DNA of 44,708 nt. Origin: a virus. Its lineage: Duplodnaviria > Heunggongvirae > Uroviricota > Caudoviricetes. Below the pieces are notes generated by a model. That model did not search any database. It was not told the DNA's origin and worked only from the letters and a program-made list of their open reading frames with translations. Below are positions 3,132 through 9,785 of this stretch, piece after piece (position 1 is the stretch's first letter; every line of letters begins with the position of its first letter). Made by a program: the position numbers and the translations under genes. The DNA is taken from the IMG/VR virus record IMGVR_UViG_2541047944_000003, positions 1 through 44,708 of that record; one strand, 5' to 3'.

Positions 3132-3405
3132 AGCGTGAGCGGTAATTACGCAGGCGCGGGTCGATATATTCAGGGAATTTGTCTATTGTCGCTTTTCGCA
3201 ACGGTCTCATTGCTGTTTCGTTTGTTCGGTCCTTCTCCTGTTTTAGCGCGAGTTGTATATCGCGTCGGTACATCCGTTCTGCTTTTGTTTCTGGTGGCAG
3301 AGTAAGAAATGCATCGAAATTGTTTTTGATATTTTCCAGCACCTCCAATACGGAATTGCCGGAACAGCGGCGCGCGTCGTCCGCACCATACAGAGGCGCT
3401 GGCAT
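3109..3405 (-). CDS. hypothetical protein (98 aa)
   Basis: ORF with AGGAGA ribosome-binding site upstream of ATG at 3405. Confidence 0.45.
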
Positions 3406-3418
3406 GATTTTCTCCTGA

Positions 3419-3934
3419 TTAAATTGCGTGAATAGCGTGACGAGGGAAGGGGAGGGTTACTGGCGCAAAAGGTATATCGTCGTCAAACTCCATAGGTGGT
3501 TCGCTGTGATTTACCTGCTTCTGAGGCTGCTGTTTTTGTTGCTGACCGTTATTTCGCTGAGGTGAAGACTGTTCATTGATTCCTTGCTTGCCACCAAGCA
3601 TTTGCATGGTTCCACCAACGCCCACGATAACTTCGGTAGTGAACCGATCCTGTCCGCTTTGATCCTGCCATTTTCTTGTCCGCAATTTTCCTTCAAGATA
3701 AACCTCAGAGCCTTTTCGCAGATATTCGCTGGCAATTTCTGCCAGTTTCCCGCTCATTACCACACGGTGCCACTCCGTCTGCTCCTTTTGCTCTCCAGTT
3801 TGCTTATCACGCCATTGTTCTGACGTAGCAACTGTAAGGTTTGCAAATGCCGTTCCTGATGGTGAATATCTGATTTCTGGATCATGCCCAAGGCGACCAA
3901 TAATGATCACCTTATTTACGCCTCTACTTCCCAT
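3419..3934 (-). CDS. ssb: single-stranded DNA-binding protein with 15-aa extension past the DDDIPF tip
   Basis: N-terminal OB-fold sequence ([39 protein letters not shown]...TEWHRVV), Gly/Gln-rich linker and acidic EFDDDIPF motif; ORF then continues [15 protein letters not shown] before the stop. Confidence 0.85.
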
Positions 3935-5707: not shown

Positions 5708-6289
5708 ATGAACAACTCATGGTGGCAGGAACTAATGCATTTTTTCCTGCAAGGAATGACACTTAAACAGTTGATTCATATGCTAATCATCCTGATCATA
5801 TTGATTATTGTTATGCCGGTAAGCGTAAAAGAATGGATAAACCTGCATAATCCAGAAATCCTTCCTCATTACTGGATGTATTACATCCTGTTGTTTTGCG
5901 TTAGCTATGTGCTTAACGGCGTTGTTAATTCCGCTTATCACGCTGTGACTGAAAGAATTGAGGTATTCGCTGCTCAGAAGCGCAAATCTAAAGAAGAAAA
6001 ATATGTGCAAGATTTGTTTGATTCGTTAACTCTTGGAGAAAGAGCGTATTTGGCATTCGCTGTAGCCGCTAATAACCAGCTACAAACGGAAAAGGGCGCT
6101 CATGAATCAATTTCATTGCTCAAAAAAGGACTCCTCGTTCGAAGGCCTCCTGCTGTTGGATATCCTGATACCGACCGTTTCGTTATCCCTGAAAGCTATA
6201 GACATGAGTGCTACATTAGGTTTGCCGGGAAGGCAGACAGCCTTATGGATGAACTTATCGCTCAGGATAAGCATGGCAAAAACAAGTAA
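5708..6289 (+). CDS. sieB: superinfection exclusion protein B-like membrane protein
   Basis: 193-aa protein with two strongly hydrophobic helices; rightward gene embedded in the leftward early operon between N and cIII, as sieB is in lambda. Confidence 0.55.
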   Translation: MNNSWWQELMHFFLQGMTLKQLIHMLIILIILIIVMPVSVKEWINLHNPEILPHYWMYYILLFCVSYVLNGVVNSAYHAVTERIEVFAAQKRKSKEEKYVQDLFDSLTLGERAYLAFAVAANNQLQTEKGAHESISLLKKGLLVRRPPAVGYPDTDRFVIPESYRHECYIRFAGKADSLMDELIAQDKHGKNK

Positions 6290-6305: not shown

Positions 6306-6578
6306 TCATCTCGCCGTCAGTTGTTTTGATTTCCGGTAGCCTGCCGCGTAAAGAGCTACGTTCGGAAGACAAGTTGAACCTTCATATTTTCTGGTCAACG
6401 TTGTCAGAGTTATCACTTCTGCTCTCATTGCTGGTTTGCGCTTGCATTGCAAGACCACTCGTGAAGGGGTTGGCCTGTGTAGCTTGTCGGAGCTGATCGC
6501 CTCCTGACTTTGCAGATTTGCGCGACGAGCTCTACGGCGAGAAGCTGCGGTGCCTTTAAATTCTGTTTTTCTGGACAT
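6306..6578 (-). CDS. N: N-like transcription antitermination protein
   Basis: Arginine-rich motif TAASRRRARRANLQ near the N-terminus; GGAGGA RBS before ATG at 6578; sits between nutL and the early-left genes. Confidence 0.6.
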   Translation of the reverse strand: MSRKTEFKGTAASRRRARRANLQSQEAISSDKLHRPTPSRVVLQCKRKPAMRAEVITLTTLTRKYEGSTCLPNVALYAAGYRKSKQLTAR

Positions 6579-6676
6579 GGATTCCTCCCGAATAAACTTT
6601 GGCGATGCAATCTCGAAGCTCCTCCTGAGACGGTTGCTTCGGCATTGCATCCCACAGCTTATGTGGTTGGGTGATC

Positions 6677-6722
6677 TGGCTTTTCAGCCACGTAGTCGAG
6701 AGTCGACGTTGTTTAAAGAGCC
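6677..6722 (-). promoter_or_regulatory. nutL candidate (boxA GCTCTTTAAACAAC, boxB hairpin GGC-TGAAAA-GCC)
   Basis: On the minus strand; boxA and the TGAAAA-loop hairpin recur with the same spacing at nutR. Confidence 0.55.
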
Positions 6723-6769
6723 TGCCAGTCTGCTCCATTTGGCTTCCAGCGTCCTGCTGACGGTTAAAT

Positions 6770-6788
6770 AGTACGATATGTACTTTAC
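6770..6788. promoter_or_regulatory. OL operator site (GTAAAGTACATATCGTACT on minus strand)
   Basis: 16 of 19 positions identical to a site in OR at 9084-9102; contains inverted AGTAC half-sites. Confidence 0.5.
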
Positions 6789-6983
6789 GGGATCAATACA
6801 ATTTGTTGTAATTTGGCGTGGTTTTTTATAACGCTTTGTATTTAATAGTGTTGTTTTTTAGCGTGGATGTATTGCCTCGGCGATGTAAGGAGAGATCAGA
6901 ATTGCGTGGTTTAGTGGGTTGCATCTATTTATTTTTCAATAAATATAATTGGTTATGTGTTTTTAGGTGGGCGAACGTGAGGC

Positions 6984-7009
6984 AAAGAAAACCCGGCGCT
7001 GAGGCCGGG
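6984..7009 (-). terminator. intrinsic terminator after the cI-operon cargo genes
   Basis: Hairpin CCCGGC-gctgag-GCCGGG followed on the minus strand by a T-run, immediately after the stop at 7015. Confidence 0.6.
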
Positions 7010-7014
7010 TTGTA

Positions 7015-7767
7015 TTATGCTGCAAGTCTCTTAACCCAAGTCTCTCTTTTGGAGAATGGTAGAACTTGGCTTGATTCATGGAAGAGTAAGGAGAGTTGTT
7101 GCATTTGATCACCAATTGCTTCGCTGTCTATAACAACAAATCTGTTGTTATACTCCTCACTTGAAGCTTTAAGATCAATTAGTTTCCCAAGCAATGAGTA
7201 AGCACTATTCCAGCTTCCTCCGTGTTTCACGCTTGATGTAAAAACGTATTTAGGTATGTCGGTTTTTATTGTTACAGGGACGGTAATTTGATGTCCACTC
7301 AAGCCATATACGTTTTCACGAAGAGAAAGTGCGTCTCTAAGCTCTGTGTGATATAGATAATCAATAACCATACTTTCAAACTTTTCAGCTTGAACTGGCT
7401 GATACCAGTCTAACGACAAAGTTGATGCGAGTATACCAGCTCTAATTATGTTCGATGTAATCGCACCGACATCCTTTTCTGTTGCCCAAGCAATGATTTC
7501 TCCTCGAGCATTGAGTTCTGCGCCTTCTTTAAGCAGTAATTGTCGTATCTCATCAAGTCGTTTTTTGGTAAGCGAGATCCCTCTTGCCTCCATATTCATT
7601 AAGGCATCGCATCTGTCACTAACTAAATACCTACCATTGACTTCACGGATAAAGGCACCGACATGCTCTCCATCATCACAGTAAGTGAATGGACTGATAA
7701 TTCTCAAGGTCTTGCCTATTGGATGGCATTCGAAACCTAGTTGTGAGATCACTGTTGAGCACATCAT
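7015..7767 (-). CDS. hypothetical protein (250 aa), immunity-region cargo
   Basis: ORF downstream of cI, 4-nt overlap with upstream ORF, AT-rich codon usage unlike backbone; no recognisable motif. Confidence 0.6.
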   Translation of the reverse strand: MMCSTVISQLGFECHPIGKTLRIISPFTYCDDGEHVGAFIREVNGRYLVSDRCDALMNMEARGISLTKKRLDEIRQLLLKEGAELNARGEIIAWATEKDVGAITSNIIRAGILASTLSLDWYQPVQAEKFESMVIDYLYHTELRDALSLRENVYGLSGHQITVPVTIKTDIPKYVFTSSVKHGGSWNSAYSLLGKLIDLKASSEEYNNRFVVIDSEAIGDQMQQLSLLFHESSQVLPFSKRETWVKRLAA

Positions 7768-8321
7768 ATTCCAAACCCCATTTGCCCCGACTCATCTTCA
7801 AGCGGTAAAGGTATTCTCCCAGAGTAAGTTATGTTCAGATGTTTACAGAAGTAATTCCAATACCCTACCAGGTCATCTGGGTTTATGTCATCTTCGATTG
7901 GAAACGCTATTCTATCACTATAGTATCCAGCTTCTTCATAGTATACATGGTAGTGAGCACCGTAAATGATATCTTGGTACTTCGGATGATCGACCTTGTA
8001 ACTATTCGTGTGTTTGTCAAAGTGATAGGTATCTACCGCGAAAACCCTCTTGTTATGATAGAAAGCAATAATATTTATTTTAGGGTAAGAAATCGGGTCA
8101 TCAGGTTCTGAATCCTGATCTGGTTTCCATTTCAGTTCAAACTTTAGCCCTTGTATAGGTATACAATCCTCATCCAAGGGGATGATATGGGCTTGTAGCC
8201 ACATATCAGAGCGACTTGGTTTCTGTTTCCATTTAACGCCAGAAAAGTTAACTATTTTTTTACAATAAAGTACTTTATCAACTTCTACTTGGCTTGGCTG
8301 ATAATCATCTATTTTTGCCAA
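7764..8321 (-). CDS. hypothetical Tyr/His/Asp-rich protein (185 aa), immunity-region cargo
   Basis: ORF 40 bp downstream of cI stop, co-oriented with cI; no recognisable motif. Confidence 0.6.
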   Translation of the reverse strand: MAKIDDYQPSQVEVDKVLYCKKIVNFSGVKWKQKPSRSDMWLQAHIIPLDEDCIPIQGLKFELKWKPDQDSEPDDPISYPKINIIAFYHNKRVFAVDTYHFDKHTNSYKVDHPKYQDIIYGAHYHVYYEEAGYYSDRIAFPIEDDINPDDLVGYWNYFCKHLNITYSGRIPLPLEDESGQMGFGI

Positions 8322-8360
8322 TGTTTACCGCCCTGTAAATTGTAGATAAAAGTGGTTTCA

Positions 8361-9020
8361 TCACCCAAACGTCTCTTCAGGCCATTGGCTGGCGATAACT
8401 TTCCCCACAACGGAACAACTCTCATTGCATGGGATCATTGGGTATTGTGGGTTTAGTGGCTGTAGAAACACCTGACCGCTATCCCTGATCAGTTTCTTGA
8501 AGGTAAATTCATCACCACCAAGTCTGGCTATGCAGAAATCGCCGGGCTCAACAGCTTGCTCAGGGTCAACCAGAATTAACATCCCGTCAGGAAAGCTGGG
8601 TTTGGAACCTGTTGGTGCGGTCATTGAGTTACCTTCAACCTCAAGCCAGAATGCAGAGTCACTGGCTTTTTTGGTTGTGCTTACCAATCTCTCCGCATCG
8701 CCTTTGGTAAAGGTTCTGAGTTCTGGAGAGAACATCCCAGCCTGAACATGAGAAAAAACAGGGTACTCATATTGTTTTTTAACTGGGGCCGATGAGTATT
8801 CGCCAACAGGTGAAAATGTCCCGTCGTGGTTGAATGATATGTTATCAATACCAAGGTATTTAAACACCACACCAATATCACTAAGAGATGGATGACGAGA
8901 TCCGCGCAACCAGTGTCCAATCCCACCCTGCGTCATACCTAGCTCTTCGGCTAACTTCTCTTGAGTTATGCCGAGCTCTTTCATTCTGGATCTAGCCAGT
9001 TCATACCATTTCATTTTCAT
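8361..9020 (-). CDS. cI: CI-type prophage repressor (HTH DNA-binding domain plus S24 peptidase domain)
   Basis: C-terminal domain matches lambda CI as remembered ([19 protein letters not shown]...[12 protein letters not shown]); N-terminal HTH differs; TAAGGA RBS before ATG at 9020. Confidence 0.9.
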
Positions 9021-9131
9021 GTCCTTATTATTACGCTCTGTACTGGAACCATCCATGCACAATGTGTATTTTTATTTGTATTCGTAAAGTACATATTGTA
9101 TTTTTTTATTCGTGTTTACTATGGAGGGCAT
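9021..9131. promoter_or_regulatory. OR region with divergent promoters for cI and cro
   Basis: AT-rich 111-bp divergent intergenic region containing operator-like site at 9084-9102. Confidence 0.6.
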
Positions 9132-9347
9132 ATGAGCAACCTACGAAAATATCGAGAGTCACTGAATATCTCTCAAACAACACTTGCTAAGGCAGTTGGA
9201 TGCACACAGGGAGCTATCGGACATTGGGAATCTGGTCGTCGCTTCCCAGACCTTAAAACATGCCGTGCTCTTGTTGCGTGCCTAAACAAGTTAGGCGCAA
9301 AAGTCAGTCTTGATGACGTGTTCCCGCCGGAACACAAAGCCGCTTAA
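9132..9347 (+). CDS. cro: Cro-like HTH repressor (71 aa)
   Basis: HTH motif ISQTTLAKAVGCTQGAIGHWESG; GGAGGG RBS; divergent from cI. Confidence 0.75.
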   Translation: MSNLRKYRESLNISQTTLAKAVGCTQGAIGHWESGRRFPDLKTCRALVACLNKLGAKVSLDDVFPPEHKAA

Positions 9348-9357
9348 TAAGCGGATC

Positions 9358-9403
9358 CGCTCTTTGTAACAACGGACATTCGTCCTACGTCGCTGAAAAG
9401 CGA
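9358..9403 (+). promoter_or_regulatory. nutR candidate (boxA CGCTCTTTGTAACAAC, boxB hairpin TCGC-TGAAAA-GCGA)
   Basis: Immediately downstream of cro; same boxA core and TGAAAA loop as nutL. Confidence 0.55.
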
Positions 9404-9488: not shown

Positions 9489-9785
9489 ATGGAAAGAACA
9501 AGTTACAGCAAACTATCACAGCGTGACGTTGATCGCGCAGAAACAGATTTACTTATCAATCTGTCAGCTATTACCCAGCGCGGTCTGGCAAAGATGATTG
9601 GCTGTCATGAATCGAAGATAAGCAGAACGGACTGGAGATTTATTGCTTCGGTCTTGTGTGCTTTCGGGATGGCATCAGACATCAGTCCGATTAGCAGGGC
9701 TTTTAAGTATGCGCTTGATGGACTCACCAATAAAAAACGCCCGGCGGCAACCGAGCGTTCTGAACAAATCCAGATGGAATTCTGA
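9489..9785 (+). CDS. cII: CII-like transcriptional activator
   Basis: C-terminal 20 aa LTNKKRPAATERSEQIQMEF match lambda CII as remembered; N-terminal part differs. Confidence 0.8.
   Translation: MERTSYSKLSQRDVDRAETDLLINLSAITQRGLAKMIGCHESKISRTDWRFIASVLCAFGMASDISPISRAFKYALDGLTNKKRPAATERSEQIQMEF

Follow-up and report, generated by a model that had tools for sequence, protein, structure and literature searches.

This locus raises the question of whether two short elements, one on the leftward and one on the rightward early transcript of a lambdoid phage, are genuine N-utilization (nut) sites and, if so, what kind of N antiterminator they serve. The DNA is a 44,708-nucleotide (nt) stretch of a virus of the Caudoviricetes (IMG/VR record IMGVR_UViG_2541047944_000003, positions 1 to 44,708), which was analyzed as a whole and is referred to below as the window. 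An earlier note, made from the letters alone, had claimed a matched nutL and nutR in it, each with a boxA and a boxB hairpin bearing a TGAAAA loop, specific to the N protein of this phage. We consider it very probable that the two elements, listed below with their parts, are the functional nutL and nutR of a lambdoid phage carrying the 90-residue N protein of the phage VT2-Sakai type. Both appear to follow one plan, that is, an xGCUCUUU boxA with ACAAC behind it, a spacer hairpin of 4–5 base pairs (bp), UACG and boxB, for which we propose a 5-bp stem NNGCU/AGCNN with a U–A closing pair and a GAAA tetraloop.

6721-6677, minus strand: nutL as a whole, GCTCTTTAAACAAC-GTCGACTCTCGAC-TACG-TGGCTGAAAAGCCA
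6708..6722, minus strand: nutL boxA GGCUCUUUA (rrn-type consensus core), then AACAAC; read from the sequence, GCTCTTTAAACAAC at 6721-6708
6695..6707, minus strand: nutL spacer hairpin GUCGA-CUC-UCGAC (DNA GTCGA-CTC-TCGAC), predicted fold of -4.9 kcal/mol
6691..6694, minus strand: nutL UACG linker between spacer hairpin and boxB (CUACG with the last stem base)
6677..6690, minus strand: nutL boxB UGGCU-GAAA-AGCCA, TGGCTGAAAAGCCA, predicted N-binding hairpin, from folding
9359-9403, plus strand: nutR as a whole, GCTCTTTGTAACAAC-GGACATTCGTCC-TACG-TCGCTGAAAAGCGA
9358..9373, plus strand: nutR boxA CGCUCUUUG, then UAACAAC; read from the sequence, GCTCTTTGTAACAAC at 9359-9373
9374..9385, plus strand: nutR spacer hairpin GGAC-AUUC-GUCC (DNA GGAC-ATTC-GTCC), predicted fold of -5.2 kcal/mol
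9386..9389, plus strand: nutR UACG linker
9390..9403, plus strand: nutR boxB UCGCU-GAAA-AGCGA, TCGCTGAAAAGCGA, predicted N-binding hairpin, from folding

When both strands of the window were searched, the composite pattern GCTCTTT N{1,2} AACAAC N{15,25} GCTGAAAAGC had exactly two matches, with 0 expected and 0 found in 100 dinucleotide-preserving shuffles, and a script search of both strands for perfect NNNCU-GA(N1-3)A-AGNNN hairpins returned the two boxB elements only. Single pieces are common, boxA alone with up to two mismatches giving 3 matches versus 1.15 expected. The nutL/nutR pair is thus not a chance match, and the claimed occurrence of matched boxA and TGAAAA-loop sites on both arms stands. 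The claimed placement, on the leftward transcript upstream of N and on the rightward transcript just after cro, is borne out by the coordinates: about 40 nt separate the inferred pL start from nutL and 99 nt separate nutL from the N start codon, and nutR begins 11 nt after the cro stop codon and 86 nt upstream of cII, so that each early transcript has one copy, in the pL–N interval and in the cro–tR1/cII interval, respectively. As in other lambdoid nut sites, a boxA of the (C/U)GCUCUU(U)A type stands 5' of boxB at both sites (the rrn and lambda references being UGCUCUUUA and CGCUCUUA, respectively; PMC2724277), and the two boxB elements share the same GAAA loop. The boxA described previously, GCTCTTT(N)AACAAC, is present, but its internal gap is not constant (1 nt in nutL, 2 nt in nutR), and the spacing of about 24 nt is correct if one counts from the 3' end of GCTCTTT up to the hairpins as first drawn (25 and 24 nt). 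A scan of the whole window against Rfam at gathering thresholds matched no family.

The sites are already annotated in public records as 'putative', and the finding of them is in that sense correct but ordinary. The record of VT2-Sakai (AP000422) has a 'putative N-utilization leftward' and a 'putative N-utilization rightward' over the matching stretches, and further annotates pL, pR, the operators and, just past nutR, a 'putative rho dependent terminator for pR transcript'. The N region of the window is 94–99% identical to that of many Shiga toxin (Stx) and E. coli phages, and the cro–nutR region is 98–100% identical. The window shares with VT2-Sakai an identical nutL core, a nearly identical nutR that differs only in flanking bases, and the same placement relative to pL, N, cro, tR1 and cII, and it has the 90-residue N, the nutL boxB UGGCUGAAAAGCCA and the nutR boxB UCGCUGAAAAGCGA that define the VT2-Sakai-type group; in contrast, VT2-Sakai has H0092 and H0093 between N and cI, where the window has a DUF1828 and a DUF6978-like gene. 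The same N also occurs in the Stx1-converting phage AP005153, Nil2, 1717, 2851 and YYZ-2008, and the 14-nt nutR boxB is labeled 'Putative NutR (similar to NutR Epsilon34)' in Salmonella phage g341c. The nutR feature of VT2-Sakai spans 40 nt, ends inside the boxB loop and carries no structural description. Beyond such 'putative' features, for which a correct annotation is useful but routine, the present analysis adds that the boxB loop is a true GNRA tetraloop and that the spacer hairpin and CUACG are part of the site.

Folded alone, the nutL boxB forms 5 bp and a GAAA tetraloop at -7.1 kcal/mol (z -3.43), and the nutR boxB forms 5 bp and a GAAA tetraloop at -6.5 kcal/mol (z -2.70). The earlier note had proposed RNA folding of both sites as a check, which the isolated hairpins pass. 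Its drawings, GGC-TGAAAA-GCC and TCGC-TGAAAA-GCGA, are literally present in the sequence, but a stem of 3–4 bp under a hexaloop is wrong, both hairpins extending to 5 bp around GAAA; the U and A of that hexaloop correspond to the U–A closing pair of the lambda, P22 and H-19B boxB. Also overlooked was the conserved spacer hairpin with CUACG between boxA and boxB. The UACG is invariant across 71 distinct nut sites. Pairing was assessed in equal-length tetraloop boxB elements anchored on CTACG, in order to avoid selecting for complementarity. CTACG occurs once within the 400 nt upstream of N in 16/16 sequences (15 diverse loci and the window), and a perfect 5-bp tetraloop hairpin follows it in 15 of these. 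In 17 distinct tetraloop boxB elements, 85/85 cells pair, and the outer two pairs show double-sided changes (U–A, A–U and C–G at the first; G–C, C–G and A–U at the second), with a covariation score of 0.385 versus 0.08 in shuffles (0/500); slid controls collapse.

The spacer hairpin is likewise maintained, with six different stems (GUCGA, GGAC, GGCC, GGGC with G·U, GGUGA and GAUUC(A/G)) that all pair. Relatives keep the nutL stem under the loops CUC, ACUC, ACAC, AUC or GCAC, and the nutR variants GGGC/GUCC (G·U) and GGCC/GGCC retain pairing; among closely related sites, the variation falls mostly in the loops. Spacer pairing was counted by an outside-in script because MAFFT, run on 29 distinct spacer-plus-boxB segments, misaligned the variable spacer stems and set the tetraloop/pentaloop gap at the 3' end.

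The claimed specificity of the sites for this N is supported by natural co-variation of N and loop across loci, immunity types and genera. The window N has the arginine-rich motif FKGTAASRRRARRANLQ, with the core GTAASRRRARRANLQ at residues 9–23, and is 100% identical to the N of VT2-Sakai and 57–58% identical to those of H-19B, 933W and HK106. We sampled 80 IMG/VR loci with the 90-residue N and 80 with a 127-residue N, in which nutR was found in 75 and 75, respectively. With the 90-residue N, nutL is UGGCU-GAAA-AGCCA in 79/79 loci that have upstream DNA, and nutR is UCGCU-GAAA-AGCGA in 74/75; with the 127-residue N, nutR is UCGCU-GACAA-AGCGA in 75/75 and nutL is GCGCU-GACAA-AGCGC. Loop type thus matches N type in 149 of the 150 loci with a nutR. 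The DNA between nutL and nutR, clustered at ≥95% identity over ≥90% of length, falls into 51 distinct immunity segments, 3 of which occur with both N types, nutR following N in each locus. Polymorphisms flanking nutR, at the 3' end of cro and downstream, are common to both N groups; only the 3' half of boxA and the loop track the N type. Such a pattern across recombinant backgrounds would be expected from selection for a matched protein–RNA pair.

The comparison with phages of similar arginine-rich motif, another of the checks suggested previously, gives the same picture in more distant relatives. Phage phiSTEC1589, whose N is 86% identical, has GCAA at nutL and GAAA at nutR; the Salmonella phages g341c and S135, with a 120-residue N and the motif SAAGRRRERRAALQ, have GAAA on both arms; and in prophages of Citrobacter, Atlantibacter, Erwinia, Enterobacter, Pantoea and Klebsiella that encode RRRERR[AS]xLQ, the nutL loop is always a GAAA or GCAA tetraloop, as is the nutR loop except in two Klebsiella loci, for which no nutR was found. 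In Atlantibacter, GCAA stands on both arms. Phage SPN9CC, with an H-19B-like motif, has GACAA at nutR. On these sequence comparisons, the boxB loop is likely the specificity determinant matched to the arginine-rich motif.

Phage SPN9CC also shows peculiarities of its own. Its nutR reads UCGCU-GACAA-GGCGA, with a U·G closing pair, and about 120 nt upstream of N CTACG precedes not a GACAA or GAAA boxB but GCTCCGTCAACGAGC, in which 4 bp enclose a loop of 7 nt; the two arms have no obvious match.

By analogy to lambda and H-19B, from which N binding, the roles of the Nus factors and antitermination at the window sites are inferred, a polymerase starting from pL or pR would transcribe the nut site (step 1), and the N-terminal arginine-rich motif GTAASRRRARRANLQ would bind the GNRA-fold loop and the U–A closing pair of boxB (step 2). 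BoxA would be bound by NusB/NusE, and N and the spacer by NusA (step 3). The RNA-tethered complex may then, through the conserved C-terminus of N (CLPNVALYAAGYRKSKQLTAR), make the polymerase resistant to the Rho-dependent tR1 and, on both arms, to terminators further downstream (step 4). The N/nut pair would in this way control the early genes, and indirectly Q and the late and toxin genes, in many Stx phages and their relatives.

More tentatively, and as a possibility to which we give somewhat less than even weight, the window may represent an experimentally uncharacterized natural class of N/boxB pair, combining a GNRA tetraloop (GAAA or GCAA) lacking an extruded base, a phage 21-like motif G-[ST]-A-x-S/G-RRR-x-R-R-A-x-L-Q, an N body resembling that of H-19B and a nut frame with a structured spacer. 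As part of the same proposal, the class would be widespread, being present both in Stx phages and in Salmonella, Citrobacter, Atlantibacter, Erwinia, Enterobacter, Pantoea and Klebsiella prophages. On this reading, the GACAA/H-19B and GAAAA/lambda systems would be orthogonal to the tetraloop class, and the extruded loop base would be dispensable for assembly of the N antitermination complex. The agreement between loop and N motif in dozens of unrelated immunity modules amounts to a natural experiment pointing to the loop as the specificity determinant, and a compact third N-peptide/hairpin pair, provided that it shows no cross-reaction with those of lambda and P22, could serve as an RNA-tethering tool.

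Several observations weigh against taking the two elements as functional sites of this N. A literature search found no experiment on a VT2-Sakai-type N or a natural tetraloop boxB, which is not proof of absence, and the nut annotations of VT2-Sakai and g341c are themselves only 'putative'. The 160 sampled loci are not phylogenetically independent, and for this reason no p-value is stated for the coupling of N and loop. The single mismatch among the 150 loci (L048; IMGVR_UViG_2531839234_000006, nutR near 1086, N at 3877) has the 90-residue N and a GAAA nutL, yet a lambda-type cro end and the GAAAA nutR CGCTCTTACACATTCCAGCCCTGAAAAAGGGC; either N specificity is not absolute and a GAAAA pentaloop is tolerated, or the element is a defective recombinant. 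The three inner pairs of boxB, including the U–A closing pair, are invariant, so that covariation cannot separate a tetraloop from a hexaloop. Finally, in transcripts folded from the inferred pL start, the equilibrium probability of the nutL boxB varies between 0.11 and 0.87 with the 3' end chosen, the competitor being a CUGGC just upstream of boxA that pairs with the boxB 3' arm.

The competing fold at nutL is a caveat, not a refutation. CUGGC is present in the E. coli variants and absent from most relatives, and, as transcription proceeds, the local hairpin should be the first to form, and N would then add to its stability. 'Alternative NUT RNA structures' are reportedly dealt with in a study of H-19B by Neely and Friedman (2000), to go by its title.

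Among the alternatives to a 5-bp tetraloop boxB, the one that survives best is a stem of 3–4 bp with a six-base UGAAAA loop, presented to N as a hexaloop as in phage 21. It draws on the flanking U and A, which never vary, so that covariation gives no proof of their pairing, on the 54% identity of the arginine-rich motif to that of phage 21 and on the six bases, CUAACC, of the phage 21 boxB loop (PMC12550061). That loop itself, however, is described as a 4-nt GNRA-like fold flanked by a C–C pair (PMC12550061), and ViennaRNA pairs the U and A in both the minimum-energy and the centroid structures at both sites. The H-19B and HK106 boxB elements are annotated as 15 nt, that is, 5 bp and a pentaloop, and SPN9CC nutR retains the closing pair as U·G. 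The U–A closing pair is moreover needed for binding of lambda N, according to Tan and Frankel (1995) as cited in PMC12027372. We therefore regard the hexaloop as improbable.

A role of the hairpins mainly as terminators, RNase III or other processing sites or stabilizers, or as part of a long-range fold between boxA or the sequence upstream of it and the boxB 3' arm, appears quite unlikely. In arbitrarily cut 60-nt excerpts, upstream sequence does pair with the boxB 3' arm in preference to the local fold, at nutL (-14.2 versus -12.0 kcal/mol) as well as at nutR (-16.5 versus -13.1 kcal/mol), and the competition at nutL persists across the E. coli variants. In natural transcripts from the pR start, by contrast, the nutR alternative is gone, its boxB having a probability of at least 0.91 at every 3' end tried, and relatives with different flanks fold boxB at a probability of 0.8–1.0. 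On our reading of the sites, the first base of boxA shows no covariation with the boxB stem among relatives, and the complementarity seems incidental to the sequences GCUCUUU and AAAAGC. Pairing of boxA with the boxB 3' arm was rejected as a conserved structure on these two grounds, the nutR transcripts and the first boxA base. Intrinsic terminators were rejected because a U-run is missing after both boxB elements; both hairpins are also absent from the output of the terminator scan.

Decay, in which the 90-residue N would be a deleted, inactive form of the 127-residue N and GAAA would be GACAA minus one base in a defective prophage, is the least credible reading: although N is about 37 residues short of H-19B N in two gaps, the larger of 29 central residues, and the nutR loop is the H-19B loop minus a single base, the same N and loops are unchanged in at least 74 loci with >25 immunity types and in the isolated phages VT2-Sakai, 1717, 2851, ev207, 2G7b and PhiR57_1, the nutL and nutR loops are identical despite different stems, the full-length 120-residue N of g341c and S135 has a related motif with GAAA loops, and distant genera keep the pairing (Atlantibacter having GCAA at nutL and nutR alike); independent decay would not alter the two arms and the protein in concert.

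The functional nutL and nutR thus preferred are embedded in a typical lambdoid immunity region, in which the genes come in the order N, cI, cro, cII, O, P. Its features are as follows.

6306..6578, minus strand: N antiterminator, 90 residues (Pfam PF25694 N_peptide, E 3.4e-32; PHROG 271)
6768..6796, minus strand: pL, -35 TTGATC at 6796-6791, 17-nt spacer, -10 TACTAT at 6773-6768; maps to VT2-Sakai pL
8361-9020, minus strand: cI-like repressor (HTH_3 and Peptidase_S24)
9076..9104, plus strand: pR, placed by transfer of the VT2-Sakai annotation, the two cro start codons falling together at 9132
9132..9347, plus strand: cro, a 71-residue HTH protein (Pfam HTH_3, E 4.2e-12; Cro in related phage records)
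9433..9458, plus strand: tR1 region, putative Rho-dependent terminator, hairpin AUGCGU-UUCC-ACGCAU; maps to the VT2-Sakai feature
9489..9785, plus strand: cII, the first gene requiring readthrough of tR1 (Pfam Phage_CII, E 7e-34)

The N start codon has a Shine–Dalgarno sequence GGAGG 5 nt upstream. A phmmer search with N against the chains of the PDB gave no match up to E 10, the N peptides there being too short to score. The two promoters were placed by homology to annotated records because a consensus promoter scan listed neither. Transcription from pL probably starts near 6761 at (G)UCAGCAGGACGC, and the leader UCAGCAGGACGC is common to phage 21 and H-19B. The cro stop codon (9345-9347) sits within the hairpin CCGCUUAAUAAGCGG. 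Between nutL and N, the leader (6630-6660, minus strand) contains a hairpin CCACA-UAAGC-UGUGG followed by GAUG, and a UUUGGG(A/G)UG-like motif occupies the equivalent place in relatives including H-19B; the hairpin could be a boxC-like or processing element.

Some neighboring genes also deserve mention. Downstream of cI (7015-8321, minus strand), in the position of lambda rexAB, are genes for a 250-residue DUF1828 protein and a 185-residue DUF6978-like protein, which match PHROGs 1960 and 2017 (function unknown for both) and have weak PADLOC matches to the candidate defense system PDC-M24 (B, E 4.7e-10; A, E 4.8e-4). At the end of this cI–moron operon, just upstream of pL, stands a strong hairpin of the intrinsic-terminator type, AACCCGGCCTCAGCGCCGGGTT with TTCTTT behind it (6990-7011, minus strand), in the position of the VT2-Sakai 'terminator for pRM transcript'. 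Convergent with N and directly past its end is a SieB-type superinfection exclusion gene (5708-6289, plus strand; Pfam SieB, E 2.5e-22; PHROG 1301, E 3.1e-122).

The nut sites of the window are worth comparing with those of the known antitermination systems. Lambda and P22 likewise have a boxA, a spacer and a 5-bp boxB with a U–A closing pair and a GNRA-type loop, which their N proteins bind through an arginine-rich motif (PMC2724277, PMC12027372, PMC12550061), and their sites are placed in the same way, after pL upstream of N and after cro. They differ in the loop, which in lambda is GAAAA or GAAGA with the fourth base extruded and in P22 is GACAA with the third base extruded onto the peptide, whereas the GAAA of the window has no extra base; in P22-type GACAA loops, the extruded base is a C that contacts the peptide (PMC12550061). 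Furthermore, the lambda spacer is single-stranded and binds NusA, unlike the structured hairpin found here, and the window boxA is nearer to the rrn consensus (GCUCUUUA) than to the lambda boxA, GCUCUUA.

Phage 21 (OL657228) has a nearly identical pL leader through boxA UCAGCAGGACGCUGGAAGCCAAAUGGAGCAGACUGGCAGGCUCUUUAA, with about 4 differences in about 52 nt, the match of leader and boxA running from 6714 to 6761 of the window (minus strand) and from 3293 to 3342 of the phage 21 record. Its arginine-rich motif is 54% identical over 28 residues (GTAKSRYKARRAEL versus GTAASRRRARRANL), and a pairwise BLASTP comparison of the two N proteins gave no alignment beyond that motif. In phage 21, the boxB stem is longer and bears a CUAACC hexaloop, and there is neither a spacer hairpin nor CUACG; the window correspondingly lacks the phage 21-type combination of CUAACC hexaloop, 5–7-bp stem and unstructured spacer. 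From the spacer onward, nutL follows the plan of H-19B, and the central LHRPT segment and the C-terminus of N are H-19B-like; judging from these alignments, a recombination joint appears to lie just after boxA. The N protein of phage 21 recognizes a four-base GNRA-like fold inside its hexaloop (PMC12550061, which also cites the nuclear magnetic resonance structure 1NYB). We speculate that the window loop, like that of phage 21, presents a four-base GNRA-like fold with no extruded base, and since phage 21 N reads such a fold, the combination of a phage 21-like motif with a loop lacking an extruded base is a structurally plausible hypothesis.

The phages epsilon34, g341c and S135 share with the window the nutR boxB UCGCU-GAAA-AGCGA and a motif ending in RRRERRAALQ, and their nutL boxB is a tetraloop hairpin with a CGGCU or AGGCU stem. 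Unlike the window, they have a 120-residue N that keeps the central region and a nutL spacer stem AUUCA/UGAAU, and their nutR has no good boxA (CACCACUUCC). A novel boxB specificity had been predicted from the N-terminus for this N type in the epsilon34 genome paper (PMC2629481).

The nearest characterized system is that of H-19B, whose nutR has been studied experimentally (PMC3526286, PMC4499122). At H-19B nutR/tR1, antitermination by N has been observed both in vivo and in vitro and is lost when the arginine-rich motif is mutated, and the tR1 homologue is Rho-dependent; two hairpins were described in nutR, RNase T1 sensitivity being interpreted accordingly, and its spacer and boxB are protected by N together with NusA/NusG (PMC3526286). 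H-19B, 933W, HK97 and HK106 share with the window the succession of boxA, ACAA(C/U), spacer hairpin, CUACG and 5-bp boxB, and the spacer hairpin and CUACG directly 5' of boxB place the window in the structured-spacer subclass. The window nutR has exactly the spacer hairpin GGACAUUCGUCC and the boxB stem UCGCU/AGCGA of H-19B nutR, and the 933W nutR–cII stretch, with a nutR core equal to that of H-19B, is about 93% identical. The N proteins of H-19B and the window have in common FKG..SRRR, EAISS..LHRPT and the C-terminal CLPNVALYAAGYRKSKQLTAR. On the other hand, the H-19B-type N has 127 residues, about 37 more than the window N, and its arginine-rich motif is NSRSRRRERLKAKALA, as opposed to TAASRRRARRANLQ in the window. 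The boxA of H-19B is weaker (CGCUAUUUU at nutR, CGCACUACU at nutL), and its nutL spacer stem, GAUUC/GAAUC, is different. The loop of H-19B, 933W and HK97 is the P22-like pentaloop GACAA, in place of GAAA, so that the nutR of the window differs from that of H-19B in essentially one loop base fewer and a few boxA positions. Where the H-19B type combines GACAA with the motif RSRRRERLKAKALA, the window combines GAAA with AASRRRARRANLQ, and its sites are a sister specificity class to the H-19B/933W/HK97 type, not members of it.

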